A DNA stretch of 63,937 bases, the filler included, from Hausera hauseri (taxonomy: Eukaryota), in assembly GCA_046269625.1 (NCBI GenBank). It is 13 parts of 13 records of this genome, joined end to end, with 100 filler letters (N's around TTAATTAATTAA, not from the genome) between each part and the next. Parts side by side here need not be neighbours in the genome. Positions count along the whole stretch, not along the records: positions 43,944 to 50,432 come from JBJURY010094320.1; 12 more parts are not named here. The stretch is one strand, 5' to 3'. The translations under genes and the position numbers were made by a program. The notes beneath the pieces were generated by a model. The model saw only the letters and a list, made by a program, of their open reading frames with translations. It was not told where the DNA came from and made no database searches. This document shows positions 16,088 to 55,745 of this stretch, in pieces (position 1 is the stretch's first letter; each line of letters starts with the position of its first letter).

Positions 16088-16140
16088 TTTAAATACAGAA
16101 TACGGATTTCGATTTTTTTGATATCGGATTTTCTATTTAA

Positions 16141-16581
16141 TTGATGGTCTCGTGTTTTGAAGACGTTGCTTTGTTAAGATACAACAAGGGTTTCAAACTT
16201 TTCGATTTAGTTATTGATTATCTTGATCTCAAAATTGATATTTTACCTCATAAATTTATTCTGTACATAACAATTCAAAGCGGCAAAACATTGGACGTGA
16301 AATTCGATTTAAATCGGATTAATTGGTATTGTCTTGTCACACATAGAATTTTAATTGAAAGTGAAACGTGGAAAATTGGTAATTTCAATGTGCATTCATT
16401 TTTGTTGGGATTTGATGACGATGATGACGTACTAACTTTTTTTAAACAAATTGACTATTGCAAAACTGGAAAGTCCAGTCAGTATGAGTCTTATGGTAAC
16501 ATAAATTATTCTCAAGCTAATAATCAAACGACAAATAATGTGCCCTTGACACCTCAAGAAAAGACGTTTTTTGTATTTTGA
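16141..16581 (+). CDS. Unknown intronless ORF (146 aa), possibly a PH-like fold fragment
   Basis: Open frame with alternating beta-like segments ending in a helix (LLGFDDDDDVLTFFKQIDYCK). It lies between the mariner and the Gypsy fragment. Confidence 0.35.
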   Translation: MMVSCFEDVALLRYNKGFKLFDLVIDYLDLKIDILPHKFILYITIQSGKTLDVKFDLNRINWYCLVTHRILIESETWKIGNFNVHSFLLGFDDDDDVLTFFKQIDYCKTGKSSQYESYGNINYSQANNQTTNNVPLTPQEKTFFVF

Positions 16582-16589
16582 ATCTTCAA

Positions 16590-19524: not shown

Positions 19525-22039
19525 CTTTCAAATACATCTGTTAGCAGCAGCACATCGGTTTGGAGATATATATCACTATATTCTCCTAATGTTCTGCATT
19601 GAAATGTCTGCAGGACGTTCTGAGCATGTTGGTAGTCCTCATCACTAATATCACTATCCGACAACTGGCTGTAAAAACCATCCTTGGATGGTAATGAGGA
19701 CTCATCCAGTGTTTCCCATGATGTTATATAATCGTAGGGAAACACTCCTTTCCTATTAACCAAGTCAAAGGTATCCGGAAAGAATCGCTTCGTTTCTTTG
19801 AGTTCTTCGACAGGCAGGTTCTTCACTAAACTATCCAGTGAAGATGACATGAATCGGAAACTATCGATGAAGCGAAATCGGATTTTACCAACATGCGTAG
19901 TGAAAGTGATATATTTATCTTCACTGTTGGGGATGACCTAAATGCTTCCTTCAATGTTGCCTAAATCTCGGACTATGAAGTGGCTGTCATAGCCGCTGAG
20001 ATTGTGGAATACTACAGGCAGAAATTTGCATGTTTTGCAGCGAAAATTGCAGTTGTTACATGCTGCGCCCCGATATGCACCTGTAAAGTGGCAGTGATAC
20101 TTGACTTCCCAATTTTCCTCGGCGAAGAACTTGTCGAACAAATAGCATGATGTTGCCTTGCGCTATTCTTCTTCTTGCATCCAATACATGCTCATGTCGT
20201 ACTTATGTTGTTGCAGAATTTTTTCAAGCTTTTGAGCCATGTCTTCAAGTCTCTTCATGAAATGTTCTGCTGAACCTGGACCCCTGAATAGATATGGTTC
20301 ACTGTCCAATCCCTTGTCATACATACAATACGGCGATAATTTATGATATTGGTATGCCGTTGTACTGCTATGTTAAGGACTGGGACTGCATGAATGAACT
20401 GGCCTGAGAATGGCCTCAAAGTCGCAATAGTTGACAATTGGGACCTTGATCTTCCTTAAATTCGATATAGTTTTCTTCGGGAAATTCTGACTTTACAGAA
20501 TAATTGTTCTTGCAGTACATCTTGTACTCTTGCAGCTTCTCTACACCTAACCTACCGCTGAAATGTAATAAACATCTTTTACATATTTTGATTCCGTGTT
20601 CATGATTTTTTATTTGGGATCTGACTAGACGCTCAAAGTTCTTTATCCAAACATAATGTTTCTTATCGCCCTAATCTAGTAGCAGCAGATTCCTATGATC
20701 TTCCAATTCATCATCACATATTTGAAAGGGGTAAAATTTGTCCTACTCATCCAATCCAAAGATATTGATGGACATGTTGTTGATGCGGCTGAACCTCTTG
20801 ATTTTATCTATAGATGGAGGGAATGTGATACACTGAAAGTCGTAGTTGTGTTGGAGATCACTATATAGTAAAACACGGTAAGCACACTTTTGATCCGTTA
20901 CGGGTTTTGATAGAATGGCGTACAGGAAGCACATGTTATCATTATTATTTTGAACATTTACACATGCTTTTTTATTAGTGATACATTCCGGAAGCTGTAT
21001 ATATGAACTGCCTTGCATGGGGGAGTATCTGTGTACATATATAAGCAGTCTCTTGATGGTTGCCAGAGTCCATCCACTCTATTATCCTGGCTGTCATCGG
21101 CTTCACGGATTAGTTTCGTATGCTCTTCGTGCAACCATTCAGCTGTATTTGTGTTTTCCAATATGGACCTATTTTTGGTCTTGAAGGTCCTATTTGATTC
21201 TTCAGCTTCGACATTGACGTATGTGGCCTCAAGTTTCATATTAACTTTAAGGGCCTTGAGCTCAGTCATATTTTTTTGGAGGATCCCCTCTGTTTTTTCC
21301 TTTGCATATTCCAGAAACTCTTTGATTGTTCTTTGCCCAGTTGCATCAATGACATATTTGCGGACTTTTTTCTTTAATGCAGCAGCATCAACTTGCCGCT
21401 GTTTTTGGCTTTTTGGCAGAGCCGCTACGTCTGTTGAGCCTGAGGCATCTGATGGACCTGATGGGCGTGTTAATCCTGAATCTCGATGTACTTCTTCATC
21501 TGGCTGTACTGCAAACTGTACAACTGGCCTATGCTCATTAAATATGTTCTTCTTTGACTTTGATGCAAAGTCAGTCAAATGATGCTTGTGATCTTCATAG
21601 AACTGTATATATTGTTCATCACATACATTCTGACATCCTGGGCAAATATAATAGAGGATCCTATTGAATTTGTGACCATAATAGCTCCTCATGGTATTAG
21701 ACAATTCTCAGGTTTATGTATTGTACATGTGCAATACACATATGAACTGCACCTTTGGTTTTCTTTTGGCACGAAAGACGTTGTTGGCATATTGGTATAG
21801 AATATTTGTTTTTTCGACTTCGCGAAGGAAATCAAGTGCCGTTTATGGACATTGTAGAATTCCTCGTACTCTGTCCTACACACCACCTCACATTTAGGGC
21901 ATATATAATATTGAATCCTGTTGAACATATGGCCAAAGTATTTCTTCATAATACTATGGCAATTTTCAGGCTCATGGATTGGAGTTCGCACTGTAATGTT
22001 CGCTTTCTCTGTAAAGTTCGCACATCTAAAACAAAGCAA
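19525..22039 (-). mobile_element. Polinton/Maverick-type protein-primed DNA polymerase B, N-terminal part, pseudogenised
   Basis: GSSYIQLPECITNKKACVNVQN...CFLYAIL, HCHFTGAYRGAACNNCN, VVFHNLSGYDSHFI, RFIDSFRFMSSSLDSLVKNL, RKGVFPYDY and YLQTDVLLLTDVFE. Confidence 0.93.
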
Positions 22040-24871: not shown

Positions 24872-27800
24872 GAGTCAAGATGGCGCCGACACTGGTGGCT
24901 TGCCGTCTACCTCTGTCCGCTTTGATTGTTTTGTTGCTATTTTGGTCGCTTCTTTTCAATGTGATCAACTCACTGCTGGTGTATGATCGCCAGCAACTCA
25001 TACATCTGCAGTTTTCCACCTCGTTGGGCAGCTTTAACCGAGGTTCTGGACCCCCACCGCATCTCCTCTCGAGCGTCCCTGGTTACCTGGTGCGCGAGGC
25101 CGCATTGCCCGCACGAAGACATCGCTCCAGGCGCCGTGGAAGACGTGCTGGTCGTCGTGTGAGGCTCAGAGCTAGCTTTGCTCTCTCCTCTGCTGCTGAC
25201 CAACGGACAATAAATCCTCCTCCAGGCTGCCTCGCGGACTCCTGCCTGCTTCAGGTGACCGGCTCTGATGCGCACGGCGCGCGAAGCTGCTGTGGCTCCG
25301 ACTGTGGCGTCTCTGACCGTCTCCAGGTGAACGAATCCAACTCGGGTCCATCTGCTGCCCCATCCCATGTCAACCCGTTGATTTCCCCAGCCAACTCTGA
25401 GGTGGCTCACGGCTCCCGGATCGAGGTGCTTCACCCAGGTCTGCGTAGTGGGCACACGCGCGCGCGGAGCTCCGTTTTCCCCGGCGAGCGAAGACGAGAG
25501 GTAAACAACCTGAAACAGCTGATCTGCGCTCCGTGCCCGACTCTTCCTCCAGCTGCTGGTCCTACAAGACTCGCGTTGTTAAACGTGAGGTCCCTGGCAA
25601 ATAAAACTTTTGTCATGAACGACTTTTTCTGCTCAAACGGACTGGACTTCATGTTCCTCACAGAAACTTGGCTTCCTCCTGGTGAGTTATCTGTTTTTTC
25701 TGAACTTTTGCCGGTGGATTGTTCATTTTTTAACACTCCCAGGCTAACTGGAAGGGGTGGTGGAGTTTTGGCTGTTTTTAAGAAACTCTGGAACTGTAGA
25801 CTGTTACAGGCAGCAACCTTTCAGACTTTCGAATTGCTGCATTTTGAACTGGGCCGCTCCAACCCCCTGCTTTGTGCTGTGATCTACAGATCACCTAAAA
25901 TCACCGGAGGCTTCATCAAAGAACTCTCTGACTTCCTGACTGGAATATTCTTGAAATATGACAGAGTTTTAATTTCAGGGGATTTTAATTTGCACGTCTG
26001 TTGCCCTGAGAAGCCGTTGGTTCATGATTTTCTAAACCTGATCCACTCTTTCAACCTGGTACAAAATGTTGTTGGTCCAACTCATCAGCAGGGCCACACA
26101 CTGGATCTGGTTCTGTCCCATGGTTTGTCTGTGGTTAATCTGGAGATTGGTGATGCTGTTGTTTCTGATCACAAACCCATCTCATTTGAAATATCTCTTG
26201 CACGTGTGTCTAAACCTCCCGCTCCAGCCAAGTGCTGTCGTATATTTAACCCTTCAACTGCTGCTCTTTTTTCTTCTGCGTTCACTTCCACTGCTGTTGT
26301 AACCCCTGAAACATCTGCCTGTGTCAGTACACAGGAGCTGCTCAGTAGCCATAATGAGACCTGCGCTAAGATCCTGGACCTTGTAGCCCCACTTACAGTC
26401 AGGCAGCCGAAGATGACAAAATACCCCTGGATAAATGAGACCACGAGGGCGGCGAGGCGGCTCTGCAGGAGAGCAGAACGCAAGTGGAAAAAGGACCACC
26501 TCCAGGTTTCTTTCATTTTATTGAAAAACTGTCTAAAGAACTATCAGTCCACAGTCAAATCAGAGAAAAACAAATATTTCTCCCAAATCATCACCTCTAA
26601 CAGACACAACCCCCGCATTCTTTTCAACACAGTAAATTCCATTCTTAATGCTCCTCCATCTGCCAGCATTGAGGCCTCTCCTGACTCCTGTAACAGCTTC
26701 ATTAAATTCTTTGTTGAGAAAGTGGAGTTCATTAGGTCCACCATCCCCCACTCGGCAGTCGACACCTCTCCTATTGTTTCTTGTTCTGCAACTTTCAGGC
26801 AATTCAAACCCATTTCACTCTCATTGTTAAACAGTGTTGTTGGTCACATGAAACCCTCAGGCTCCCCCATTGATCCCATCCCCCCATCATTGTTTAAACA
26901 GGTACTACCGTCGACTGGGCCCTCTGTTCTTAACATTCTGAATAGTAGCTTTGCTACATGCGAGGTCCCAGATGCCTTCAAGCATGCAGTGGTCACTCCA
27001 TTAATAAAGAAACCGGGTCTTGACCCTTCAGTCTGCTCAAACTACAGACCAATATCAAAACTCCCCTTTCTGTCCAAAATCCTTGAAAAGATAGTTTCCA
27101 CTCAACTAAATCAGTTCCTCAATGATAACAAAGTCTTTGAGGTCTTCCAGTCTGGTTTCAAGCAGCTCCACAGCACAGAAACAGCTCTGGTTAAGGTTTA
27201 CAATGACATTCTGTTGGCAAACGATTCTGGTCACTTTGTGCTACTTGTACTCCTTGACCTTACTGCTGCTTTTGATACAGTTGACCACAGTATTCTTATT
27301 TCACGGCTCGAACACTGGGTAGGGATCACAGGTGCTGCACTAGACTGGTTCCGATCTTACCTCACTGACAGAAGTTTTTGTGTCAAGGTTGGGAAAAATG
27401 TATCCACTTCAATGTCTCTCTCCTGCGGGGTCCCACAGGGCTCTATTCTTGGTCCACTTCTCTTCACACTGTACATGCTTCCGCTGGGATCCATCCTAAG
27501 AAAACATGGTATCTCGTTCCATTGTTACGCGGATGATTGCCAGATCTACCTGCCACTGAAACCAGCTCATGCAGGCTCCCTCCACCCTCTCCTAAAATGT
27601 CTGGATGACATTAAAACATGGATGGCTTCAAACTTCCTAAGTTTTAATGATCAGAAGACTGAAGTCATCATCTTTAGCCCTAGCTCAGCGGCCGCCTCGG
27701 ATCATATAGACCTGGACTCCCTCCAGCCCTATCTCAAACATTCAGTGAAAAATCTTGGGATGGTTTTTGACTCAGACCTTAAGTTTGATAAACAGATCAG

Positions 27801-28580
27801 TTCCGTTCTACAGAGAAGCTTCTTCCAACTGCGGCAGGTAGCTAAACTCAAAACAGTTTTGTCTAGACCTGACCTTGAGACACTAATCCATGCATTCATC
27901 ACAACCCGCCTGGATTATTGTAATGCACTGTATGCTGGGATCAGCCAGGCCTCCTTCTCACGTCTTCAGCTTGTCCAGAATGCAGCAGCTCGGCTTTTAA
28001 CCGGTACACGTAGGTCTGAGCACATTACACCAGTTCTCTCCTCCCTTCACTGGCTCCCCGTGAGAACTAGAGTTGACTTTAAAATTCTGTTGTTGACCTA
28101 TAAATGCCTAAATGGCCTCGCTCCCCTCTACCTCTCCGAACTGCTGGTACCATATGTTCCCTCGCGCACCCTGAGGTCATCTGATCAGATGCTTTTGGCG
28201 GTTCCAAAAACCAGACTAAAGCTCCGAGGAGATCGGGCCTTTTCAGTCATCGGCCCCAAACTTTGGAACAACCTGCCCCCCAACATTAGGCAGGCCTCCT
28301 CCCTTCACATGTTCAAATCAATGCTGAAGACCCATCTGTTCTCTCTGGCGTTTCATACTGTGTGAGCTGACTATATATTGTACCCTGTTGTTTTCATTTT
28401 AATGCTGTTCTTATACATTTTTGTTATATTTTTACTGCTGTTAGTTTCATAGTTTTACCATTAGTGCGTGTTACGGTTTCTGTAATTTTTTTATATCTCT
28501 TTGATGTTGTTTGTGAAGCACCTTGATAACAGTTTATCTGTTTTAACTGTGCTATAGAAATAAAATTGACTTGACTTGAA
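24872..28580 (+). mobile_element. L2-clade LINE, apparently full-length, teleost-like
   Basis: 5' caagatggcgccg, one long ORF, and a 3' UTR ending aataaaattgacttgacttga (short tandem tail typical of L2). Confidence 0.9.
24880..28365 (+). CDS. L2 LINE protein: APE endonuclease + reverse transcriptase (1161 aa, uninterrupted)
   Basis: LLNVRSL, FLTETWL, GDFNLH, GHTLDLV, SDHKPI; NYRPISKLPFLSKILEK, LDLTAAFDTVDH, GVPQGSILGP, CYADDCQIY; C-terminal HITPVLSSLHWLPV and GDRAFSV. Confidence 0.97.
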   Translation: MAPTLVACRLPLSALIVLLLFWSLLFNVINSLLVYDRQQLIHLQFSTSLGSFNRGSGPPPHLLSSVPGYLVREAALPARRHRSRRRGRRAGRRVRLRASFALSSAADQRTINPPPGCLADSCLLQVTGSDAHGARSCCGSDCGVSDRLQVNESNSGPSAAPSHVNPLISPANSEVAHGSRIEVLHPGLRSGHTRARSSVFPGERRREVNNLKQLICAPCPTLPPAAGPTRLALLNVRSLANKTFVMNDFFCSNGLDFMFLTETWLPPGELSVFSELLPVDCSFFNTPRLTGRGGGVLAVFKKLWNCRLLQAATFQTFELLHFELGRSNPLLCAVIYRSPKITGGFIKELSDFLTGIFLKYDRVLISGDFNLHVCCPEKPLVHDFLNLIHSFNLVQNVVGPTHQQGHTLDLVLSHGLSVVNLEIGDAVVSDHKPISFEISLARVSKPPAPAKCCRIFNPSTAALFSSAFTSTAVVTPETSACVSTQELLSSHNETCAKILDLVAPLTVRQPKMTKYPWINETTRAARRLCRRAERKWKKDHLQVSFILLKNCLKNYQSTVKSEKNKYFSQIITSNRHNPRILFNTVNSILNAPPSASIEASPDSCNSFIKFFVEKVEFIRSTIPHSAVDTSPIVSCSATFRQFKPISLSLLNSVVGHMKPSGSPIDPIPPSLFKQVLPSTGPSVLNILNSSFATCEVPDAFKHAVVTPLIKKPGLDPSVCSNYRPISKLPFLSKILEKIVSTQLNQFLNDNKVFEVFQSGFKQLHSTETALVKVYNDILLANDSGHFVLLVLLDLTAAFDTVDHSILISRLEHWVGITGAALDWFRSYLTDRSFCVKVGKNVSTSMSLSCGVPQGSILGPLLFTLYMLPLGSILRKHGISFHCYADDCQIYLPLKPAHAGSLHPLLKCLDDIKTWMASNFLSFNDQKTEVIIFSPSSAAASDHIDLDSLQPYLKHSVKNLGMVFDSDLKFDKQISSVLQRSFFQLRQVAKLKTVLSRPDLETLIHAFITTRLDYCNALYAGISQASFSRLQLVQNAAARLLTGTRRSEHITPVLSSLHWLPVRTRVDFKILLLTYKCLNGLAPLYLSELLVPYVPSRTLRSSDQMLLAVPKTRLKLRGDRAFSVIGPKLWNNLPPNIRQASSLHMFKSMLKTHLFSLAFHTV

Positions 28581-34465: not shown

Positions 34466-34564
34466 GACATATCAGACTAAAGTCCTGCTGTTATCTGTCA
34501 ATTAAATGACAGACAAAGGAAGTTTTAATGTCAGTATGGCTGTCAAATCTGCTAGTGAAAATGT

Positions 34565-37500
34565 ATGCGTTCATGTAAAAATATGGGCCCAAATAATGCG
34601 ATGGTTCCCATTGCACAAAAATGCACAGTGAGGAGGAGATTAAGTGCGCTGACGGATTGTGATAGCACAAATTGTGATCAGATTAAATTGATAAACGGAG
34701 TGAACGATTCTAGTCAAAAGCAGAGTGTTAATAAATTTAGAATTGAGGAAATGACCTCCCTTCAAATGTCAGATGATTCTGTAGAGGCAGATGAAAATAT
34801 AGTAACCAATGAAAATGATCAAAATAAATGCACACAGATGACTCCTGATTCTCAAAAGTGCACAGTTGGAAGAAGACTGAGTGCAACAGTAAATGATAGT
34901 GCAGATCATGAGCAAGCTTCGTGTATAAGTAAAGTGGAAGATTCTGGAAAACTGATGCGGCTTGATGCTGAGGAAGTCGCCCCTCATCCAGTGTCACATG
35001 ACTTCAAGAGTGCAGCTGAATTTCTGGTGGCTGATAAAAATTGTGCAAATGAATTCGTGATTTCTCGACCTCAGATGAGTACAAGTAAAAGATTGAGTGG
35101 GTCAACCAGTGCTGATGGTGCGTTGCGTGAAGAAGTTCATCATGTGAGTAAAGAGAAGAATTCTGTACAAGGAAATATGCTTCATGAACATGATGCTATG
35201 GAAATGACAGCTTATAAAATGTTGAATGTTTCTAAAGATAACAAGGATGATAAACATGATAACAGCGAATGCACACAAAATGTGATAATTCCAAATCCTG
35301 AAATGTGCTCAGTCGGGAGAAGATTGTGCGCATTTACAAATATTGATGGCCCAGGTCAGGTTCAGTGTGAAGTAACAGATTCTGAACAACAGACTAAGAG
35401 TGTTGAATGTGTCACCCATCATCAGATGCTCAATGTTTCCAATCAAATGGAAGCTGATGGAAATGATGAAAGCACACAAAATTTGATTATTCGTCGTTCA
35501 CAGAGAAGCAGAATCTGGAAAAGATTGAGTGCTCTGTCTAATTCTGAACATCAGAACCATGATCAGATTCATTGCATGGATGACTTGNNNNNNNNNNCTA
35601 TTTAAAATGGTTTAATTTTGTTTTCACCTTAACTCAAACATAAAAAAAAACGTTTAGGGCAGTTCAAGCATTGCTGTTTTGTGGATTTTATATTAATTTG
35701 AATTCTCCTTTGTTTTTTTCTGGAAGCTCTCCATCATTAATTTGGTCTTGATAAAGATTCTGTGAGAGCAGAAGCTAATGTTGATGAACAAGAGGCTAAT
35801 TGTTTATCCTTGCATCAAATGTGGAATGTGTCTCAAGATAAAAGTGTGATGGATGTGTCTCAAGACAAAGGTGTGATGGATGTGGATGTATCTCAAGACA
35901 AAGTTGTGATAGATGTACGTGAAGACAAAAAAGTGGTGGCTGCAGAAAATGTAAATCAGTGTTTACAAAATGTGATGAGTTCTGTTGGGCAGACACACAC
36001 TATCGAGAGCTTGAATAAACAGATTAGCTTTGATAAGACACAAAATGATCAAGTTCATTGTGTTAGTGATTCTGTACAGGGAAATGGGTATCAAGTTGAT
36101 AAACCTGAAGCTAAAGAAGCTGCAGTTGAAATTTGTGAAGAAGCAGGTGCAAAAATGGAGCCTGGTGGAAGTGAAACAAATAAATGCATACATGAGATGG
36201 TCTTTAATGCTCAAACTGACTTTGATCACCAAGACAAAGATCAAGTTCAGCTTGTAGTTGAAGTGAAGGATACTCACATAGAAGAAAGTGAAGGTGATAA
36301 ACTTGAATCTAAGAAAGTGTTGCCTCATGAAACGTTGAACATTTCTGGAGATGAAGTTAAAGATACAGAGGCTGATAAAAGCCACTTGACACACAAGATG
36401 GTCTGTAACACACAAACTGACTTTGATCACCAAGACAATGGCCAAGTTCAGCTTGTAGGTGAAGTGAAGGATGCTCAAACTGACTTGGATCACCAAGACA
36501 ATGGCCAAGTTCAGCTTGTAGGTGAAGTGAAGGATGCTCAATCTGACTTGGATCACCAAGACAGTGGCCAAGTTCAGCTTGTAGGTGAAGTGAAGGATGC
36601 TCAAACTGACTTTGATCACCAAGACAATGGCCAAGTTCAGCTTGTAGATGAAGTGAAAAATGTTCAAATAGAAAAAAATGAGGCTGATAACCTTGTATCT
36701 AAGAAAGTGATTCCTCATCAGGTGTTGAATATTTCTGGAGATGAAGCTGAGTGTGATGAAAGTGATACAAGCCACTTGACACACAAGATGGTCTGTAATG
36801 CTCAAACTGAATTTGATCACCAAGACATTGGCCAAGTTCAGCTTGTAAGTGAAATGAAGGATACTCGGATAGAAGAAATCGAGGGTGATAAATTTAAAGC
36901 TATGGAAGCGATCCCTCATAAAATATTGGATACTTCTGAACAAGCAAATATGGAAACTGATGAGAACTATAAAAATCCTTGTATATATATGGTGACCACT
37001 GATGCTCAGACCGACTTCAAACACCAAGACAACGACCAGGTTCATCTTATAAGCAAAATGATGGATGCTCGAGCAGAAGAATATGAGGTTGAGCTTGAAT
37101 CTAAGGAAGTAACTCCTCATAAAATTGTGAATGCTTTTCAAGATACGAAGGCTGATAGAAAAGACACACAAGTAACTAATCTTAATAGTTCGCATGACGA
37201 TCAGAACTGGTATATGAGTGAAGTTAAACATTCTGAACAAGATGAAGATGGTGGTGATAATTTGATCCCTCTTAAGGTGTTGGATTTTTCTAAGGACATG
37301 ATACAACTGGCTGTGAATTTAGATAGTCCAAGTCATGAACAGATTCAGTGTATAAATGAAGCAGAAAATTATCAGTATGGAGAAAATGAATACGAAGTAA
37401 CTAAAGCGACAGTCCCTCAGGAGTTTGATGATTCTGAAGATACAATTTTGTATCCTATCAGTTTTGATAGTCCAGGTCATGAACAAGATCAGTTTACAAA

Positions 37501-38356
37501 TGAAACAGAACAAAATCAGGTTGATGAGCCTGAAATCCAGGAGGCGGATGTGCAACAAATGTTTGAAGGTGTAACACAGAAGAATGTTTGTTTTAATGTG
37601 TTTGCAAGTAATAGGTGCAGCAGTTCGAAAATGCCACATGTGGGGATCACTGTTTCATTCATGGATAATAATGAGGACCGGCCTGGTGCTAGGCATGTGG
37701 AGTGTAAAATGGATCTGTTGGATGTTGCAAAACGAAGCTTGAGTAAAGGTCAGTCTAATAGATCTAATAAAATTGAAGAGTTGAATTTAATGAGGAACAG
37801 AAAGAAGTCTTGCAGTGAGTTACATTCATGCGATTTGGATATGATTCCTCTTACTTGTAGTGCTGACAAAGCAAAACAAAGAATTGAATCATATGATAGT
37901 AGGACAGAATACAAGAACACACAGCATAGTGGAACGGAAAGTTTTGCCAGCATAAATACAGTTTTTTCTACTCCAGAAGGCTACCAGGTAAAGAGTACTG
38001 AAAAATCAGCAATGATGGATGGGGGAGCTATAAATAAAAGATTAAAAGAATCGATTGTGAAGCAAGCATCCAACTTCTCTGAAACATTAGTGACACCTTT
38101 AACAAAATTTAATGAGGAAAGCAAAACTGGCATGTCTCCATTCATGGCCACGAGTAGTGGTGAAAAAATTATTTGCAAAGTCAGCAGACAGAGAGATGAA
38201 AAGAAAAGCAGAGTAAGCAGAAGTTTGTTCAAGTATGTTGGTGCCATGCAAACCTCTGATCTAACGAAAATGTTGACTGGCTGTGTGGTAAACCTAGGTG
38301 AAAAAATTGCTCACAACAGCCTACCTGAAAGTGACGGACATGGGGATAAAGTCAAT
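34565..38356 (+). CDS. Giant acidic, internally repetitive exon (over 1200 aa) of an unidentified gene, split at about 35588-35750
   Basis: ORFs 34565-35587 and about 35753-38356 share repeat motifs (QKCTVGRRLSA, DQVHC, HQMLNVS). Open to the contig end. Confidence 0.75.
36412..36663 (+). repeat. 63-bp coding tandem repeat x4 (QTDFDHQDNGQVQLVGEVKDA) within longer units of about 200 bp
   Basis: Units start near 36413, 36476, 36539 and 36602. Related single copies lie near 36212, 36803 and 37007. Confidence 0.92.
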
Positions 38357-38456: not shown

Positions 38457-39225
38457 GACCTATTCAGCAGATTTTCAACAGTTTTGCCGTATAAGCTGTT
38501 GTTCTTAAGCTTACAAAAGTCTTTTACAAAAGGATTATTTGCTGCAGCCTCCTTTGAAGTGTTTAAATCAATTTAATCCTTAAAATTATATCCCTGGTCA
38601 AACTCAGCGGTCCAATGTACCTTTTCAACTACAGCACCTAACTCGATATACAACTGTAAGAGGCGATAGTGAACAACACAGTTGGACTTACGGTCATGTA
38701 CAAGTAGCTGTTGCTTAACTTTTGAACCAGGAGGACATTTATTAATTTGGGGTAGAGGTTGCTGCTCTAACTTTTCATGTTTGTCAACTGGAATGCTTAA
38801 CTCGACTTCAAAGACTAAGCCTCGTTTTTCCCTAACACCGTCAATATAGGGCAATTGTTCAGTTAGACTGTTTAACTTATTTTCATCACATATCCATACT
38901 AAATTCGCAAATGGCAGTGGTTGCAATAAAGCCCGGCCGTATAAATTATTTACATCTANNNNNNNNNNCATTCAACCGCGAATACCCGAATGAAAGAAAT
39001 AGTACATTTCAGGGTCGTGCACAAGTTTAATACGGCACGGACTGGTTTTCAGTGCAGTTGCCCAAGATAAACTGGGAATTGAAACGAAGTTAACGGCTTC
39101 TAATCCATCTTGCATCTTAACCTCCTTTCCAAACCGTTCAAAAACATCGCCTAACAAGTATACGTCGAGCTTCATGTATACCAACATATAATCTAAAAGA
39201 CAGCTACAACTGTATTTTGACTGAA
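38457..39225 (-). mobile_element. Second Polinton-type pPolB fragment (polymerase core), decayed
   Basis: KLDVYLLGDVFERF, SIPSLSWATALK, GIRG, DVNNLYGRAL and KLKNNSLYGKTVENL. Confidence 0.9.
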
Positions 39226-39499
39226 CCAGTTGTGCCTCCCCATAATCGGTATAATATATTATTCGGGATTAACATATCCAACAGATACGATTATGGTAAA
39301 AAATTCCAATGGAAATTTGACAAACTTCTATAGGCGATTGTCTGTGTTTGCCTCTTCAAAACTTTTAGAATATTACTTTGTAAATTCTTTCGATCAAATT
39401 TTTCTTCGAGATCCTTTCTACGCATTGACAAAAAGGGAATTAAAAACACACTACAGTATTCACGATAAGAGTTACAGAAAAGAACTTCAATATGGTATA

Positions 39500-40230
39500 A
39501 ACAGAATTCAAAAGCGAACTTTTCGAAGAATATGGTGACAATATTTTAATTTATAAACGCGAAAAATATGTATTATTTAAACAAAAAAATTGTGCAACAA
39601 TCAATGACATATAAAAGAAAGGGTCAGTAAATCCTGCACAATTAACGAATTTCGAATTTGAACGCAATTTTCCACTTAAAAACCATTTTACTGACGATAA
39701 TATTTATATTTGTATCAATTTCGGTATTACCGGAACGTTTCGAATAATTCTTTAATTCTCCCGGCATTCGGGTGGTTAACATTTGTGAGAAAATAATATT
39801 GGAATTTTTTGTTCGCGATGTAATGAAGTGATTCGTTAATGATTTGAAATTTCAATCGGTAACAACATCACCGTTGAGAAAAAAAGTTCTTTTCAAATTC
39901 TTCATTATGTAAAATACGAATGATTTCGAAAATACTAATTTTTGAGGACGAAAACGAAAATCGATTTTGACATCATCGTCAACGAATTCTTTGTAATTGA
40001 CACGTTTTAAGTAGGCTTTCAATTCATTTTCATGAGTCGATGAGATAAAATGAAATTTCTAAATTTCCCATCCAATAGTTTCAGCATGGTATAATGTAAG
40101 ACGGGGACGTTACCCAGTGGAACAAGACAGCGGGAGATTCGATACAGCATAGGTCGCAGATATGATCCATCGTCGTTAATAACAATAACGGCATTATTAA
40201 CTTTTTCTGCTAATTCACATTTTTTCGGCA
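39500..40230 (-). pseudogene. eIF2B-epsilon-like nucleotidyltransferase-fold N-terminal domain, intronless and decayed
   Basis: AVIVINDDGSYLRPMLYRISRCLVPLGNVPVLHYTM, then across frameshifts SIFEIIRILH and FLNGDVVTD*NFKSLTNHF. The pattern fits eIF2B epsilon/gamma. Confidence 0.65.
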
Positions 40231-40295
40231 TATTTGTGAACGGATCAGTGGAATTAGTCTGCTTCGTCAATGTTTCGTTACAAATCAATTTTTAT

Positions 40296-40790
40296 TTACA
40301 GTACTGACTTGTTCGATTTTTTTTGAGGCGAAAAGAAAAATTGAGATTGAGGATAGATATTGGCGGGAATCATGAATAAATTGGAAATAGGCATCAAAGA
40401 ATTCAATATAGGCACCATACCATTTGTCGATCCAAATGGTTCGGACATTTTAGTATTAAAATCCGATTTTGGAGTGATTACCTCTGTGTATGAAGTATTT
40501 GTTGATGTGGATGAACCACCAGAATTGGAATGTTCTCTTATAACTAAATTAACCGTATTGTGATCCATTGACAGAATATCCGATTACCGAAGATTTACAA
40601 TTAAGGAAATAAATTTTTTAAACGCGCCTTCAGCAAACCCTAAATTGTTAAGTCTTTTTTCACTTATGGAAAAGAAATATCCAGAAGTAATGTTGTTTAG
40701 ATAGGAATGACATTTGTGAAGTCTGACATGTTTTAACCAGTCAAGGAAATTTCCGATATGACATTGTGTTTGCTTGCAGAGTTTGAAGTT
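40296..40790 (-). pseudogene. Smaug/SAMD4/Vts1-type RNA-binding SAM domain fragment
   Basis: DWLKHVRLHKCHSYL...SEKRLNNLGFAEGAFKKFISLIVNL matches WLKSLRLHKY...TKGARHKI. It continues in frame past a TAA into 40296-40568. Confidence 0.72.
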
Positions 40791-40799
40791 GGGGAAAAA

Positions 40800-43700
40800 A
40801 TTGTCGGATTTTTGTGTAAGTGTTGCGTTGTGCAAAGACGAGGTAGAAAGGAGAAGGAGAAGGTGAAGGAGGAAGAGAGATTGTTGGTGACGGATGGTTG
40901 GAGGTGTTCAAGAGAGTGTTAGAAGACAATGGACTGACAGAAGGTGTAGTGGCGGATGGAGGAGGAGAGACGAAAATTGAAGTAGAAATTGGAATTGTGT
41001 TAGGCGAAAGAGTAGCAGTAGAAAATGAAACAGGGGTAGTAGTAGAGATAGGAATAGAAGTAGAAGGTGTAGAAAATGATAAAGCAGAACTATGATCAGA
41101 AGGAGGAGGTGAAACTGGTGTAGCAACGGATAGAGGAACAGCAGGAGGTGTATGAATGAGAAAAGAGGTTGACGTGTCGATTGGTGAAATGTTGTCGACG
41201 AAGAAGGCGGGCTTTAAGTTGGTAATACGCTCTATAAGTTCTTTGCCGTCTTTAGAAATAATAGCGTTTTGCGAATGTAGTTGTACCAGATTATAGTGTC
41301 CCAGATACCGCAATTGGAAACCGCACGGCGTTTGATTTTTTAGCCATACGAATTTTGCCGAATACATGTCTTCGGGTAAATATGTTTTGTTCTTGTAAAG
41401 TAACCTGCAGAACGAATATTTACTGACCGTAACGAAATGATTTTGCGCCGCCCGTATCGTTTCATCTGTAGGAGTGTCATCTAGGACAGTTAGTTCGAAT
41501 AGTGATCATACAAGATCTTTGAATAAGGCTTCAGTAGGTGAGCATCCCGTAGAAGTAGACGGAGTGTTCTGCCAGCCGAGCAGAACAAACGGAAGAAAAT
41601 TTGTCCAACTAGTGTTGGACTCTGCCAGAATTCTTAGTGACGTTTTCAATGTTCGGTGGAAGCGTTCTAGGAGGCCGTTCGATTGGGGATGATAAGGCGT
41701 ACTATGTATGTGATGGATCCCCAATCGCTTAGCAAGGGATTTGTACATTTTGGATTCAAACTGTGGACCTTGGTCCGTGATGATGAAACGAGGTGATCCA
41801 AACCTGCTAATCCATGTACGAATAAAAACTTCAGCTATAGTGTCGGTATTTGTGCTCCCCATAGGGATGGCTTCTTGCCATCGCGAGGAACAATCAATCA
41901 TGGTGAGGATGAATTGATGACCGTCGTCTGGAGGAAGAGGGCCGACGATGTTGATATGCTCGGATTCGAAACGCGATGTGCAGGGAAAGTGGAACAGTGG
42001 TGGCTTTAAATGCTTAGTTGTTTTGGAGTTTTTGCAAGCCATACACTCCTTAACCCATGCCTGCACATTGGAACGCATTGACGGCCAAATTACTTGTCCG
42101 TGGAGTAAACTAAAAGTGGCTTTAGCACCGTGGTGGTGTAGCGAATGTACACTGTTAAACGCTTGCCCTTGCAAAGGTGGTGCAAGAATTATTATGGAAT
42201 GACCTGATTTGGAAGTGTCTAAATCCACGCCGTCAACGATTGTGCAAGACTTGAAAGAATTAAGCATGTCTTGAGGTGGCTGGTTTTGTTGAAATTGAGC
42301 TGGCGTAAAAATCAGTGAAAAATTAATCGAACTAACCGACCTAGATAAAAAATCGGCAACTAAATTATTAACCCCGTTAATGTATTTTATGTCAAAGTTA
42401 AATGTCGATAAGTATGATATCTATCGTTCTTGGCGTGTGGAAGGATGTTTCATAGTCATGATGTTAAGTAAGTAGTTTGTGATCGGTCTGTATAGTAAAA
42501 TGGCGAGCGACAAGTAGGTGGGAGAAATGCTTTAAAGAAAGAACGATAGCCAATGATTCTTGATCGTACGTTGAATATCTAATTTCAGGGGATGTTAGCT
42601 TACGAGAGAAAAATTCCAGCGGTTGATTTTCGCCTTTGTGGAATTGGTGGAGTACACCACCTACTGCAGTGGTTGAAGCGTCTGTAGTAAGGATGATTTC
42701 CGCATCAGGCTTGGGGAAAGCAAGAATGTCGACGGTCTTGATTCCTTCGCGTAGCTTATCAAACTTGTCACCCAATTCAGGTTTCTACTGGATTGGCTGA
42801 TGTTTTTTACCGCCGCTTAAGTGTGAAAATTGTGCTGTCAATTCAGAGCAATATGGTACATATTTATGTACAAAGTATAGTGTACCAAGGAAGCTGCGCA
42901 TTTCCGTGGTCGTACGTGGTAACTGGATATTCTTAAGTGCTTCAACTCGGTCTGGTGGAGGAGAGTGGCCGTCGGGTGAAATAACATGGCCTAAAAAGTT
43001 GATGCACTTTTTGAAGAAATAGAATTTGTCGAAATTGAGTTGGAGATTATGGTGGTTAAGACTTTGGAATACTGCGCTAAGGTGTTCCTCGTGTTGTTTG
43101 GCCGAAGAGGAAACGATCAGAATATCAGCAATTTAATAATACGCAAAAGGAAAATCTGAGAGAATTGAGTCAATATGTTGCTGAAAAGTCTGTGCGGCAT
43201 TTCTCAAACCGAATGGCATAAACAGGTACTAGTAGAGGCCAAAATGGGTAGTGACAGCAGTTTTTTCTATGTCTTCGGTGCCACCGGTATTTGGTGATAT
43301 GCTTTGCTAAATCAATGGTCGAATAGATTGTGATTGAATTAAGACGATGCAAGATATCCTTGATGAGTGGCAGGGGGTACGCATCCATAATTGTTAAGTT
43401 GTTCAACGGTCGGTAATCACCGCATGGTCTAAAAGTTCCCTCCTTTTTTGTACGACATGTAAAGGTGATGACCAAGGAGATTTGGAATGGTGTACAATGC
43501 CGGAGCGTTCTAGTTCAAGAAATTCGGCTTCTACGGCTTGACTTTGACGATGTAACAGTGGTCGTACCTTTTGGCATATCGGTCGATGATGCTGTGTAAT
43601 TATGTGATGTACAGTGCTGTTTGCAGGAGTAAAAGTACGATCTTTTTTGAGTACTCGTGGATATGATGTGTTGACGAATTGCTGAAAAGTTGTAGACAAC

Positions 43701-43843
43701 TGTGAGAGATTCGGTGATGATGGTGAAGCGGCTTGAGTAGTAGTGGATGCAATGTGTAAATTGTTTGGTGATGTGCAGTCAAGTGGTATTTGGTTTAAGA
43801 TGGTTGAATTGAAAATGGTGTTGGATGAAATATTTTCGTCGAA
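40800..43843 (-). mobile_element. Ty3/Gypsy pol (RT, RNase H, integrase, S/P/T-rich tail), decayed; same family as 16590-19424
   Basis: SKSPWSSPLHVV, RPCGDYRPLN, MPFGLRNAAQTFQ, LTTDASTTAVGGVL, ITDQGPQFES and PYHPQSNGLLERFHR. Shares YSAKFVWLKNQ with the other copy. Confidence 0.95.
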
Positions 43844-43943: not shown

Positions 43944-44330
43944 GACGACTCTATGAATATAGCCAAAATCGAAATTTCGATAATAAGATGGATAAGAATC
44001 CCCTTTATGGGAACAAAGGCTTCGACAATAATCAGAATTCAAATAACGTGAACGCGAAGCCAAACTACAACGCGAACCAAGATGGTTATAAGGGCAATAA
44101 CAAAAATTTTAAATATGAGGCCGGAAACAGATACAATGATTTTAGAAACAATGAAAACAAATATGGCGGAAGTAGTCGGATAGAATTCTTAAATCAGGGC
44201 TATTCTACGAACGACTGCCGCTCAAAATCACTCATAAATGAGGACAGTCGACAAAGGATTGGTAGAAACGGGAATCTAATATGCTATACATGCGGCAAGG
44301 AAGGCCACATAGCACGATAATGCCCAAATC
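43944..44330 (+). pseudogene. gag: Gag C-terminus with CCHC zinc knuckle
   Basis: An N/G/Y-rich tract followed by CYTCGKEGHIAR*C (CX2CX4HX4C with a stop just before the last Cys). Confidence 0.88.
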
Positions 44331-44399
44331 CTCGAAGCGTATCGTTTACCGAACCGATTAAGGTAAGCTGAAAAGTTAACGAGAAACAAACAATCCGCA

Positions 44400-47300
44400 A
44401 ATCCTGATGGCTTGAAAGGAATATGAGGATAACGTACGAATATTAGAAGTATATCATGGACTAGTTGAACCTCGAACAAAATATGAGCACTTAATAGCGC
44501 CAGATAACAGTAATGTGGTTCGCAAGAAGAACGTGCCTGTAAAGCCCGTAGCAACAGAAGAGGCAAGCAAGGTGGAAGTAGCAGAGACATCGCCCAGCGT
44601 AGACTTGGACGCTGAATCTGAAAATCTGGCAAAAGGACATCAAGATGTGGCTGATGAAATCGAGAGTGAATATATAGCTCCATTAGTACTTAAAATAACG
44701 AAAAATAGAGGTCATAGTCCATCAATTAAAAGGAAGCCAAAAGGTCGATCAAGATCGCCATTAAAAAGAAATGCTCACATAGAGGACATCCCGAACTTAG
44801 ACACTCCAGATGTGGAGCTTGCTGAAGTTCCAGGTATTCCAAGTACAAGCGTAACCGTAGGAGACGCAAACAGTGAGATAAACGAGATATGTTTACTGCC
44901 AGATAATGAAGGCGAAACTGATTGTATGGAGCCAATTAAAAAGCTAGACGGAAAAGTGTGGAGGATCAGAAAGTCCTGGAAAAATGCAGATAAATTAAAA
45001 GAAATTAGGATGGCGCCAACAGATACGGAGACGATAAGTCACAACCTGAAAGAATTAAGGCATATAAAAACTCAAGTAGATGTGTCTGGAAAAGAACAGC
45101 ATTTCGCCGAAAGAATTTATAAAGAATTTAAACGATACCTTCAAGAAGACGTTAGCAGGGAGAAAGAAGCAGAGGAAGTGAATGAAATTGTGGAGAAAAC
45201 GATTAAAAAATGAAAAACAAAACTATATTCATGGGTAAAAAGCGGAATTGACTTCACCGCCACATGGAATAATCAAGAAATAGAAATTAAGACTAAAGTG
45301 GCGACCGCCCAAGGATTACTAAATGACGCTAGAAACGGATCCAAAACAGAAGCTAATAAAACGGAACTTAGAGAAATTAATGGTAGAAATAGAGAGTGCA
45401 GTAATCTATCACCTCAAAAATAAACCAATATACGAATTGGATGAAAACGAATTTTTAATACTAGGCATAGAACCGGTAGACATTCCTCTCATAATGGAAA
45501 TGCGTAAGATCGCGTACAGCGCACCCAAAGAATATGCGGACATAGGAATTCACATAGCCTTGCAAGATAAAAGGCGCTCCGAAATCTACAAACGTAGGAA
45601 TAAAATAACGTATGCAGAGAACCAAGAAGGACAAAACATAACGAAAACATGTACTTTAGAACTGGTCGAATACAAGAAGTAAGTTAACTACGTTAGAGGA
45701 GTAATGGACTATATTAAAGGTCCGGTCGATAAATTGAACGACGCCTGCGAACGATTAGAAAACGTAATAAACGCCAAACCAGTGATAGATAACCAACTCA
45801 AATAATGGATTGAACTGTTAGACAGATTAGTGAGTCTAAGGAAATATCGTATAAGGAAGTATTTGGAATGTGAACCAATATTAAAACAACAGTTAAAGGA
45901 AATACTACGTAACTTATATGCTTACAAAATAGAGGCAAACCTTTGGGTTGAATTTAACGCATTACCGAGACTAAGATTCATGAATAAAAATCAGTAAATA
46001 AAACTCACAGAAGAATTGTATACCATGAACGAAGAAATGGAATTATCGGCGAAACAGAAAAAGATCTCATCATTATCGATGAGACTAAAGGGTGTCCGTC
46101 TAGAAGGTGTACGACAATTGGTAACAAGGCCCATAGATGAAATATCCATATGTGATATATCGACCTTGGATATTTGCCCAAATCATCGGACCGCGTTAGA
46201 AGAAGTATTAAAATATCTACATCGTCCTTTTGAGTGGGCATCAGATACCGACTAGAATTTTCACGTTGAATTAATAGAAATAACCAAAGATCATCGCCTC
46301 ACACCAGATGACGCTAAATTCGTAAAGAGACTGATTGAAGAAATAGATCCAGAGTCGAAGACTCTAAAAGAAATGCGCGAAATAATATCACCACTATCGA
46401 CAATGGCAGAAATAGATAACGACAAGACACGACAACTAGTAACTCAAGTTAAAGATATAGAAGAATTGCGACTTCGCACAAAGCAAACAACTACGAAGCT
46501 AGATGAATTAGGCAAAGAATTGGAGACTTATAAAAATAAATATAAGATCACGCAATCAGAGTTGACGAATAAAAGACAATTCGTACAAAGAAGGTTAACG
46601 GATGTAACGACAAAATTAACAAAATATGAAAGAAAAGGACTGTTTCCTACAGACGAACTAGGTCCAACATTAAAAACGATACAATTGACATGTGGGATCG
46701 GAGCAGAATTTAGGACCAACTTAATGAAAGAGGTACAGTCAAGATTAAATGAGATCCGCAAAAATGTACGAAGTACGTCCACGATATTACTTGATTATGG
46801 ATTACCAGACGTCGCAGACGACATGGGATTGAATGCTTATTTGGAAGATATGTACAACCAAAACCCAAAAACACCCATCCAACTTTAACAAAAGGATATT
46901 TTTTTAACAGACCGATGATTTAATATGGAGATGCTCTTGGATCCCACACGGGCCGAGAGAGAATTAATTGAGCAGATTAACGTCAACATGATGGAGAGCA
47001 AACTGAGTCAGTGGATCCCTACACTAACCAACTTTCGAGCGAAAATACCATTTATAGCTCAGTACCCAAACTGTTGATAAAGAAATACGCTGATTTCTTG
47101 AAATCTAAACCCGAAACAACCATTAAGGTTAAAATATCAGCTGAATGGATGGAAGAGAAATTGAATGTACAACGATAACATTGGGTAGAGAAGTAAAACA
47201 ATGAATAGTACAAAATAGTGGGAAAGGCGAAGTAAATTATCGGTTATATTTCCGAGGTAAGATACTGGACGAACCTGAGCTACTAATAAACACTGGAATT

Positions 47301-48056
47301 ATTCTAGAGGAATCTAATCGAATAATGGCTATAATTACTGACGAACAGACAAAGGACGAGGCTGTAAAGAAAGTGAGAGGCGAACATTACGCAGGACGCA
47401 TTATGGGAATCCGAGACCCTGCCATGTGTTTTGACTACCTCCAAAGTGAGGAAGATAAGGAACAATATGATAAGAATCTAGTACAGATTAGCGAAGCAAT
47501 AACAACTGCGCCGGAACAGAAACGACCAGTTAGAAGGCCGAGGAAAATAAGAGATGATATTGACCAAAGTGCAGCCCCGATACGAGAACTAAGGCAACTA
47601 TCCATGCCCGCGATTAACTCCGATAGCGAAGAATTAAACAAGTTGCTGAGAAACATTATAAAAATAGTGAACTATTCGGGACCAAGAAACGAGATGTTGG
47701 GTGAAAAAGAAAAGGTAATATACGACGCAGCAAGGATAATCAGAACATTTCGGTTCAAAATAAACAAAAGCAACTTACCTGATGAAGTTTTAAACTAGAA
47801 AATTATGACATAGAATACTAAGGAAGAACTAAGGAAAGTAATATTGTACTTGGCGATAAAAACAAATCCCTTAAAGGAAAATGAATTCAGTAGAACCATT
47901 GGATTAATCAGAAAAGCTGCTATGAAAAAAAAGAGAGAGATAAATTGGTCAAAGCTATTTGATGACGAAGATGGAAACAGGGCGACCACTCGAATTGAAA
48001 ATGTTGTAAGAAATTTAATACCAACTGACTCAGCGCGAGGTATTGAATCAAATTGG
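44400..48056 (+). pseudogene. Large unknown coding region (about 1200 codons) between gag and env, with a coiled-coil segment
   Basis: Chain of same-strand ORFs (44515, 45323, 46016, 46373, 47325, 47844) broken by stops and frameshifts. K/E-rich heptads at about 46420-46630. No PR, RT or IN motifs. Confidence 0.75.
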
Positions 48057-49892
48057 ATGATTAAACTAACAACACTTATGATGTTAATAAGACAACTCGG
48101 TGCAATCACGGTATATGACTATGATAAGTTTAAAATAGGTCAGACATATTTCCTGATGGATCTGGAGTTGTGTGAGGATGCCAGACTCCACAAGTTAGTA
48201 ACCATTGAGAAAAAGTACTTCTTGTACCAGCAACGCGAACTGATCGCAATAGATGGGATAGAGTGTATGTTACGACGATCGCGAAGCATTTTCCACTGTG
48301 CAAATATGCACGGACATTTGTCAGTCGTAAAACCAACGACACCGCTAATTCCTATGGATTTAGATCGACAACAATGCAAACAAGCCAAGGAAACAGGAAG
48401 ATTGAGATGGTATGGGATGGAATTAGAAGCCCAACCAGGAAAGATAATTCGAGTGTACAAAGTAGCAATTGGGAAACTAGACATGCACACCGAATACTGT
48501 AAAGGTGGTAAATACTATACGGGAAAAGGTAGAGAAGAAGGAATAGTAGTGGTCGATTTCTATGAGACAGAGATGAGTAACCAAAAGATGATGTTCAATA
48601 GTGTCACAAAAACATATACCAAAAATCAGAAGTGTCACATCCAAGATGGTGCCTGTACCTTCAGGGACTCGATAGTCATTTGGACTCCACCACCTATGAA
48701 CGATTGTAACTTTATTAAAACAAAAGAATTAAACTTTAACGAAACCATAGGAAAAAGATATGTGGATAGAAGCGACAACAATGCTAGGACCAGAAAAGAC
48801 GTGGCTGTGCAATCTACCTCCACAATATTAATATCCGAGGACCGTAGATTAAAGTTCATTAAGAAGCAAATGCTTTCAGATGTAATGTAATAATGTACTT
48901 TACCAATTACAAAGCATTCTTCGTAGTAGAAGCAGCAATAAGTATTTCTGCTTTGAAAATACAAGATGTGAGAATAGAAGATTATTTAAAGAATAGAGAT
49001 GATTTTTTCTATTACAAAGCACAAATCGCACTAGCAGAATTATATCACAAGATGATCGCAAATGATTGTAAAGTGGATATGAAAATTATGAGAACCAAAC
49101 TAGCCTTAATCTATGCGAATCCAGAACCTAGCATCGCCCGTAATCCCAATGAAAGAAGGCATTTTTGGAAGAGTCACCGGAGAAGTCCTGTTGACCTACG
49201 AATTCGAAAAACGAGATGTATCCCTAAACGTGAAGGAAAAACGTTGTATCCAAGAATTGCCAATCATATATCAAAACGTACTCCCATTGGCTATGCCACT
49301 TACAAGAGTTTTGCTAGGAAACTCAACACAGCCAACAGTTTTGAAAAAATGTAAAGCAGGTTTAGGGGAACCTGTATTTAAGAGAAGTGAGACAGATTGG
49401 GTAAGTCTGCCAAATGGAGGAATAATAGCTACTCCTGGCAAATTAACTGGAACATATCTACTAAGGGAAATAACAGACGATAAGTTCGCTGACACGGCGA
49501 GCAAAGGGATTTACAGACCAAAAGAGATTGAAGCTTTCCGACAATTCCTAGCCGTCCATCGACAGCATACACACGAGCTGAATAGAGCCATGTTAACGGT
49601 GATGGATGACACTCGTTATCAAGCAAAATGGGAATCCCTACTTGGCGTTAATCATTATCAAAGAGTTACTACAAAGATATTACATAAAATTTCGGAAAGA
49701 TTTCTAATTTTCGGACAAGCTATATCAGGATTTTTAGCCATCAACTTTTTGGTACAACGCGTAAAGACTATAATTCAATCTATCATAAATGGCTATGAAA
49801 TATTTACTCTAACCGGATTTTCGTGCAAAATTCTGACCGCAATCATAACACCGTTCGGAAAATTTCTAAAGGCCTACGAAGAGAACAAATGA
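48057..49892 (+). pseudogene. env: Env-like fusion glycoprotein, chuvirus/Monjiviricetes (class III)-like
   Basis: Signal-like MIKLTTLMMLIRQLGA followed by ITVYD; ECMLRRSRSIFHCANMHGHLSVV; CHIQDGAC...IWTPP; GRVTGEV; CIQELPI; PLTRVL; SKGIYRPKEI; C-terminal hydrophobic helices FLIFGQAISGFLAINFL. The Cys and motif order recalls chuviral G. Confidence 0.85.
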
Positions 49893-50432
49893 AAAAGCGA
49901 CGTGGATAGACACGTTCGTTATTATAATCGGAAACGAAAGAGAAAACCTATATTTTTTATAGGAGAAAGAAATACAAAATTTCGAAAATACGATTCAGAT
50001 GATGATGAGCCTAAGAGAGGAGACGCAGCCTCCAAGGTAAGCAGTCGTAAGACGCTTAGGCCGCCTTTACTAATGCTGCCCCCTTCGGCACCGCAATACG
50101 AAGACAGCGATAAGAGATCTATTAACTCCTATAGTTCGGAAATTTATTGAAAGCCTTTCAATTATGAAGATCCATATGAAGTGACAAAGCAGTATGACAT
50201 GTTACGGAAAATGTAACGAGCCAGCGAAAAATCCGAATTATGCCGCCAGCCGGACGATGATCGCAAGGTAATATACTCCCCAAGGATCCCACGGAACATA
50301 TAAACCAAATCATTAATTTGGGATAATCCACGCATGCAATCCTTCCATAGCCAAGACAACCGAGAACCGCTAATCAATACGCCGGATCGAGACAACGAAA
50401 ACAGTGTAAATAACGGATTGTATCCCATTGAG
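49893..50432 (+). pseudogene. Post-env hydrophilic linker continuing in the env frame to the contig end
   Basis: Same frame as 49113-49892 with sporadic stops. It ends NNGLYPIE, like HGGMYPMY just before the protease in the 55308-59837 element. No PPT or LTR is visible. Confidence 0.6.
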
Positions 50433-55313: not shown

Positions 55314-55745
55314 TTATTTCGAGCTTATTAGGAACTCGTATGTATTTATTAAATTTAGTGTATAAACTGTGATAGTGATCTCCTTTTTTATGAGCGTAAG
55401 GTATACCACATGAGTCTCAGAGTTCTCTAATAGACATTGCGTTTCGTTTGTCGATAGATGAAGTATGCAATCATACTGTCGCTCGTTAGGGTTCCTCTTA
55501 TAGTCGTTCAACGGGATTATTTGTATTCCTATCATATATTCAACAGGTATTCGTTTCGTAGCATACCAAACTGCACTTTTCTGACCTCTCATGGAATATG
55601 TTATGTGATATTTTAAGCTTTTCAACAGTAGATCCTCGTTTATAGCCGTTGCATGTCGTATCTTGGCTTGTTCGATTTCTTGGTTCGTTAATTGACTCAG
55701 GACTTGTGGCATTAGCATTAGTATTATCAGGAGGAAGTACTTCAT
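55314..55745 (-). CDS. Signal-peptide-bearing domain in frame after the integrase
   Basis: MKYFLLIILMLMPQVLS-QLT... begins at codon 83 of ORF 55314-55991, whose start contains the integrase GPY/F motif (YKGPYEV...VHVNRCK). Confidence 0.65.
   Translation of the reverse strand: MKYFLLIILMLMPQVLSQLTNQEIEQAKIRHATAINEDLLLKSLKYHITYSMRGQKSAVWYATKRIPVEYMIGIQIIPLNDYKRNPNERQYDCILHLSTNETQCLLENSETHVVYLTLIKKEITITVYTLNLINTYEFLISSK

Follow-up and report, generated by a model that had tools for sequence, protein, structure and literature searches.

A long coding module between gag and a gB-type env in a decayed element of Hausera hauseri

A 6.5-kb contig of the Hausera hauseri assembly carries a decayed coding tract of 1,242 codons, here called region X (44330-48056), between the CCHC knuckle of a gag tail and a gB-type (PF24664) env. 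X is selected at the amino-acid level, and it is an intrinsic part of the element, present across the family. We favour, with moderate confidence, the explanation that X is a conserved module in frame with env that would serve as a cytosolic leader of an Env polyprotein, with pol likely following env; the gag-X-env-pol layout of the element is, in our view, very likely. The window analysed (63,937 nucleotides from assembly GCA_046269625.1) consists of short contigs joined by N spacers, and the feature lies on the contig at 43944-50432 (JBJURY010094320.1). The artificial 12-nt spacers, flanked by N's, carry stops in all frames, and neighbourhood across them is biologically meaningless.

Layout and coding capacity of region X

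On the plus strand of this contig the gag tail with its CCHC knuckle is followed by X, the gB-type env and a tail, in a copy that is decayed, being both dead and fragmentary; both ends of the element, where LTRs and a primer-binding site would be expected, are off the contig. The gag tail (43946-44323) comprises an N/G-rich linker and, in its 124 visible codons, one CCHC knuckle (44282-44323; zf-CCHC, E 7e-5) interrupted by a stop; the capsid part is off the contig. At the gag/X junction (44323-44415) there are stops in all three frames and X is offset by -1 from gag, with no length difference listed among copies at this point. The hairpin that follows an in-phase XXXYYYZ heptamer (44323-44329) is weak (z -1.85, matched or bettered in 10 of 200 shuffles). 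We regard a programmed -1 shift at this heptamer as doubtful, since the next 28 codons of the -1 frame contain three stops.

A preliminary description of this DNA had proposed a region of about 1200 codons between the gag knuckle and env, and such a region is real: the least-broken plus-strand path through 44330-48056 costs 17.4, compared with 32.2 on the opposite strand and 55.9 +/- 4.2 (minimum 45) in 200 order-2 Markov nulls. From 44416 onward this path contains 10 stops and three frame breaks. X1 (44416-45321, plus strand, one stop) passes from an acidic/basic low-order segment to a predicted helical part, and carries a basic NLS-like motif with an S-P-x-K site at 44728-44769. X2 (45323-47074, plus strand, six stops) is a predicted all-helical block with a heptad-rich stretch at about 46420-46630, while X3 (47154-48056, plus strand) runs from a short beta-rich part into predicted helices in the frame of env. 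Overall, X is charged (32-35% D/E/K/R) and cysteine-poor, has no membrane-spanning segment, and showed no internal duplication when its pieces were compared. Three loose NES-like matches were also found in X, although short motifs of the NLS and NES type often arise by chance. The coiled coil of the preliminary description would correspond to the heptad-rich stretch; its helical domains are read from composition and from a low-confidence model with a pLDDT of 36.

The same description had reported no protease, RT or integrase after the CCHC knuckle, and the scans bear this out. Pol families (PR, RT, RNase H, integrase) were absent from the X pieces in Pfam and NCBIfam scans, and the only protease motif that a six-frame scan picked up on the plus strand was one DTG adjoining a stop in a frame that is otherwise closed. 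Tudor-like and protease-like readings of the beta part of X3 were dropped because the spacing misfits and no profile matched. The X pieces fit no Pfam or NCBIfam family beyond weak coiled-coil matches, those of X2 being to Nuf2, spectrin, RecN and HmpF, which we read as generic coiled coil.

In base composition X is close to env. Third-position A is 0.44 in X, 0.37-0.43 in env and 0.26 in an unrelated gypsy pol at 17224, and the dinucleotide profile of X is nearest to the env and to the pol of a sister family described below (distances 0.03 for sister pol and 0.06 for env, compared with 0.16-0.25 for four other contigs).

Several other contigs of the window hold sequences of separate character. 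At 14879-19424 (plus strand) and 38457-43843 (minus strand) lie gypsy pol fragments that belong to a different lineage and are related to each other (73% alike over 951 nt); in both, the integrase is followed by a long tail rich in Ser, Pro and Thr, and their base composition differs. An open, LINE-like ORF of 1,163 codons (24874-28362, plus strand) is higher in GC and depleted in CpG (0.55), whereas the X element is CpG-neutral (1.15); more than one organism may have contributed DNA to the assembly. Long acidic frames of 348 and 872 codons at 34559-38356 (plus strand), with 63-nt and larger tandem-like repeats, had no Pfam match, and stretches at 19527-21707 and 38573-39268 (both minus strand) presumably resemble Polinton/Maverick-type DNA polymerase B fragments.

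Copies of the element, selection and homologues

Copies were compared through the contigs of the one public run found to contain the stretch, possibly of the source sample, in which depth is not a copy number; no RNA data set was listed with it, which carries no weight as to expression. Of these contigs, 4,792 align to the one at 43944-50432, with 30 of 30 bins covered, and 2,166 of them are less than 90% alike. Depth in the X bins (321-2,706) is similar to that in the gag and 5' env bins, and the 15 joints shown among copies, out of 46, skip 244 nt at most. The longest listed piece among the aligned contigs is about 600 nt, and in no other copy is gag-X-env bridged by a single listed contig. 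The case that would have undone the reading in the preliminary description, that X is an unrelated nested insert, is not borne out: we found no terminal repeats bounding X, the whole stretch is covered by related contigs, and there is a codon-position bias, given below. Coverage is thinnest at the NLS-like motif, where local depth is 26-89 as against about 500-1,000 in most bins, and the part of X bearing this motif is probably variable among copies. The disordered part with an NLS-like motif that had been described earlier is upheld in its charge and in the motif itself, with the reservation that the motif lies in a poorly covered, probably variable part.

Length differences in other copies coincide with the frame breaks of the copy on our contig, and the break near 45.32 kb is missing from 220 of 238 depth. 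Similarly, the stops at 47796 and 47811 are read otherwise by 96% and 97% of depth in this one run; they are private to this copy, so that in the family X3 reads through in the frame of env.

For 47700-47960, all 29 listed differences were sorted by codon position, counting contigs of the one run rather than copies. Of the 18 distinct sites with shared differences (15-85% of depth), 12 are third positions (P 0.004); for differences private to the contig copy the figure is three of 10, as decay predicts. Fixed differences were ranked by support, and among the best-supported 40 of 1,283 rows 19 lie in X, two of which were dropped as belonging to a frame-ambiguous zone; of the remainder, none of 17 is at a third position (P 0.001). 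Two of the fixed-difference rows recur in the 47700-47960 set. The sites at which all other copies agree are therefore first and second positions, and the third-position bias indicates selection acting on the residues of X, beyond the mere avoidance of stops.

Searching 1.84 billion protein representatives with X2 (HMMER) returned exactly one match, P0004, which is homologous to 46373-46786 (plus strand; E 1.4e-13, 36% identity over 138 aa with one gap). P0004 is a singleton from a 2,157-nt ENA contig. Its score of 82 bits exceeds the best of 499 plain shuffles (26 bits) and the best of 500 heptad-preserving ones (31 bits). No viral protein was among the X2 matches in this set, no X piece matched a viral family in Pfam, and PDB sequence searches with the X pieces gave 0, 0 and 2 matches, the latter at chance level. 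Scans of the locus against viral contigs and metagenome contigs were empty, the ESM Atlas held no usable match for P0004 or 47205-47795, and word-based protein searches, which are weak negatives, were blank for the N-terminal and C-terminal halves of env (both against longer proteins) and for X3 with env (near length). Single-sequence AlphaFold models of X parts reached a pLDDT of 36, and Foldseek found nothing at E<=0.001 with them; the Foldseek rows were disregarded because the models are unusable. The literature searched gave no account of an X-like module, Repbase, Grohme 2018 and Sacco 2022 lying outside that search. Judged by these comparisons, the cargo X itself appears to be new, with no known family and one distant homologue. 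As for the earlier suggestion of a captured module, X does prove accessory in type, integral and selected, but a matrix or nucleoprotein origin, or co-capture with the glycoprotein, found no viral match to support it.

Env, a sister family and the location of pol

The gB-type env (48057-49889, plus strand; Monjiviricetes-like) begins at Met 48057, and its two main pieces match PF24664 with E 2e-15 and 4.5e-21. It contains membrane segments at about 49700-49870 and two frame breaks, and opens with a Met-initiated, weakly hydrophobic segment (48057-48104; 15-residue hydropathy 1.3) that is likely its internal signal or signal-anchor. In the env tail (49893-50432, plus strand), beyond the anchor, the frame of env has four stops versus eight and 18 in the other frames, and is the most open to the contig end, about 540 nt past env, where no protease has been reached. 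PSAP, a late-domain motif, occurs in this tail at 50082 (plus strand), together with a terminal LYP at 50418, and a similar PSA-x-QY occurs at 59299 (minus strand) between env and protease in the sister fragment; these may be budding motifs that reside in the Env tail instead of in Gag.

A fragment on another contig (55308-59837, minus strand) bears on the location of pol. Its env C-terminus shows homology to 49599-49775 (E 1.6e-10, 41% identity over 59 aa) and matches PF24664 with E 5e-7; the fragment, only about 40% identical in env, belongs to a sister family and is not part of the same copy. Past the env end lie a protease (E 4e-4), an RT (E 4e-25), an RNase H (E 3e-32) and an integrase with a zinc-binding domain (E 4e-17) and a GPY motif, and the spacer between PR and RT has a weak dUTPase-like match (PF00692, E 0.17, profile positions 18-99 of 129). 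The PR-to-IN span is about 3.4 kb, the frame from env to PR is broken, and the contig shares the A-rich composition of X. Downstream of the integrase and sharing its frame, 55317-55745 (minus strand) holds a small ORF (about 140 codons) with a signal-like hydrophobic start and no Pfam family, which possibly encodes a secreted accessory protein.

No contig shows pol downstream of the X family's own env; the sister fragment, however, establishes an env-before-pol order in the same assembly, and the pol of the X copy therefore most likely lies beyond 50432. This order would also explain why pol is missing after the knuckle. It follows that the earlier framing of X as an unusually large gag-pro spacer has to be abandoned, as protease comes after env in this lineage. 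The whole X element is estimated at about 11 kb, made up of the 6.5 kb on the contig, roughly 1 kb for the rest of gag, a figure based on typical gag size, and 3.4 kb of pol.

Known systems, rival readings and the proposed role of X

The gag-cargo-env-pol layout is already published for Burro (PMC6431247) and for the GAG-ENV-POL errantiviruses (PMC13524379). As described by Arkhipova and Yushenova (PMC6431247), the planarian element Burro/GYPSM1 encodes one polyprotein in which Gag with CCHC knuckles is followed by Smc/MATH/Ubi2/BIR/BCL2 cargo and an in-frame, mononegavirus-like env, with PR, a dUTPase-like domain, RT, RH and IN downstream. It shares with the X element the order of gag CCHC, long cargo including a coiled coil, and mononegavirus-like env, as well as an env in frame with the upstream cargo, given that the last two stops of X are private to its copy. 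The domains after env are matched here only by the sister fragment, the dUTPase-like one weakly. Burro/GYPSM1 has two or three CCHC knuckles, whereas one is visible in our gag tail; its cargo families (MATH, BIR, BCL2, Ubi2/SUMO-like, ankyrin) were not found in the X pieces with Pfam; and its ORF is 4,873 aa, whereas gag and X are perhaps out of frame in an element whose span from gag to the end of pol is put at about 11 kb.

In the sections of Chary and Hayashi drawn on here (PMC13524379), the errantiviruses of flatworms, bryozoans and nematodes are reported to have a gB-type env and the order GAG-ENV-POL. The association of this env with gypsy pol is reported there to be ancient, and the gB-type ectodomains of some elements to be flanked by two membrane segments. 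As in the X element, these errantiviruses have a gB-type env with a membrane anchor, many copies, and gag before env with no intervening pol, the capsid domain being off our contig. By eye, the H-C-x-x-H and C-x-G-G-x-Y motifs of the Schmidtea C1a env rows in that source are also present here, the closest rows being Smed_5 and Smed_6. An accessory module between gag and env is not described in those sections. We took the published coordinates (PMC13524379) to contain flanks of 3,000 nt and subtracted these; on that basis 14 of 19 flatworm and bryozoan GAG-ENV-POL elements span 8.3-8.9 kb and one is truncated where its contig stops, whereas Smed_5, Smed_6, Bsto_2 and Cpal_7 (four of 19) span 10.9-12.0 kb, close to the estimated size of the X element. 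Anakin has the same glycoprotein family in an LTR element but, in the portion of PMC7642597 consulted, differs in its BEL/Pao backbone, in having the chuvirus-like glycoprotein as an added gene and in lacking a long gag-env module. Troyka was set aside as a relative, as it has no env.

Three other accounts of how X arose were considered. It could be a remnant of mononegavirus N/P/M-type genes captured along with the glycoprotein, as might be suggested by an env belonging to PF24664 and by the similar base composition of X and env. The order of disordered-acidic, helical/coiled-coil, small alpha/beta and glycoprotein parts loosely resembles mononegavirus P-M-G. Mononegavirus genes are separate units, however, while X is in frame with env; no viral match was obtained for X2 among the 1.84 billion proteins or for any piece in Pfam, PDB sequences and viral contigs; the 14 shorter GAG-ENV-POL elements are too short to hold X; and because the shared composition extends to the sister pol, it indicates long residence only. 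We consider this origin improbable. Even less credit is due to the notion, already largely refuted, that X derives from an eroded pol in which stops were avoided solely to let ribosomes pass into env: its 1,242 codons do approximate a gypsy pol such as the sister PR-to-IN span, and its -1 offset from gag accompanies a slippery-type heptamer at 44323, but the third-position bias reflects selection on residues, the helical block is kept in the independent homologue P0004, tblastn of X against the three gypsy pol fragments in the window gave a best E of 0.45, and the lineage retains its pol after env. Least probable of all, to a degree that makes it barely tenable, is that X came into this copy by insertion of a host gene or of a nested element with no relation to the rest; colinearity in another copy is confirmed by no long contig, yet depth in the X bins is like that of gag and 5' env, X is not skipped at any of the 15 joints shown (out of 46), terminal repeats and introns are lacking, strand and frame are those of env, and the dinucleotide profile is closest to sister pol and env.

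A more serious competitor, though still somewhat unlikely, is that X is regulatory or host-modulating cargo cut from the polyprotein, in the manner of Cer1 CERV or of the apoptosis- and ubiquitin-related domains of Burro. The NLS-like motif with S-P-x-K and the three loose NES-like matches would suit such a role, but the basic motif is thinly covered by other copies and such short motifs are common by chance; MATH, BIR, BCL2, ubiquitin-like and ankyrin families are, moreover, absent from X by Pfam. Burro has regulatory domains at exactly the position of X (PMC6431247), and CERV is a novel helical, NLS-bearing, phosphorylated gypsy protein of Cer1 needed for the nuclear export of genomic RNA (PMC10309623). 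CERV can be compared with X in function only: it is a lineage-specific accessory protein, helical and NLS-bearing, with no demonstrated sequence relation to X; it is encoded after pol by a spliced mRNA, whereas X lies before env and has no cysteine cluster.

The reading of X as a cytosolic Env leader leads to a proposed course of events. X would be made with Gag or through a recoding step past the knuckle. Since X stands ahead of a luminal ectodomain, an internal signal is needed, for which 48057-48104 is the sole candidate; this hydrophobic segment would keep X cytosolic while the ectodomain enters the ER. It is weakly hydrophobic and Met-initiated, so env could also be translated on its own. 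X would be membrane-tethered until cleavage, after which X or its last part would stay on the cytosolic face of the membrane, and the env anchor would send the chain back to the cytosol for the PSAP-bearing tail and then Pol. X2-X3 could act as a matrix- or tegument-like adaptor joining the capsid to the envelope membrane, and X1 might be released as a nuclear accessory peptide. The adaptor role is favoured by this topology and by the precedent of the foamy virus Env leader, which is far shorter than X. In foamy viruses a cytoplasmic leader of Env serves budding by binding Gag (PMC3667135); this is a functional analogue only, with no demonstrated sequence relation to X. As a predicted function, we put forward that of an adaptor between capsid and envelope membrane tentatively, at somewhat less than even confidence. 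Bolder, and unlikely as a whole, is the idea that X founds a new family of internal matrix or tegument proteins, an approximately 1,240-residue cytosolic leader that, anchored through the internal signal of env, would tie Gag on one side and Pol on the other to the budding membrane and perhaps define a long class (11-12 kb) of GAG-ENV-POL errantiviruses.

Being dead and fragmentary, the copy itself makes this a locus of limited value; X is relevant to a wider question. How invertebrate gypsy elements with a gB-type env assemble and spread is largely unsolved, and the mechanism is described as elusive outside Drosophila (PMC13524379). If X is cargo of the Burro type, the slot between gag and env would have been refilled independently by unrelated proteins. 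If it is instead a capsid-to-envelope adaptor, X would offer a concrete handle on the assembly question, and as an internal matrix it would reveal the way in which gypsy elements with a gB-type env link their capsid and envelope.
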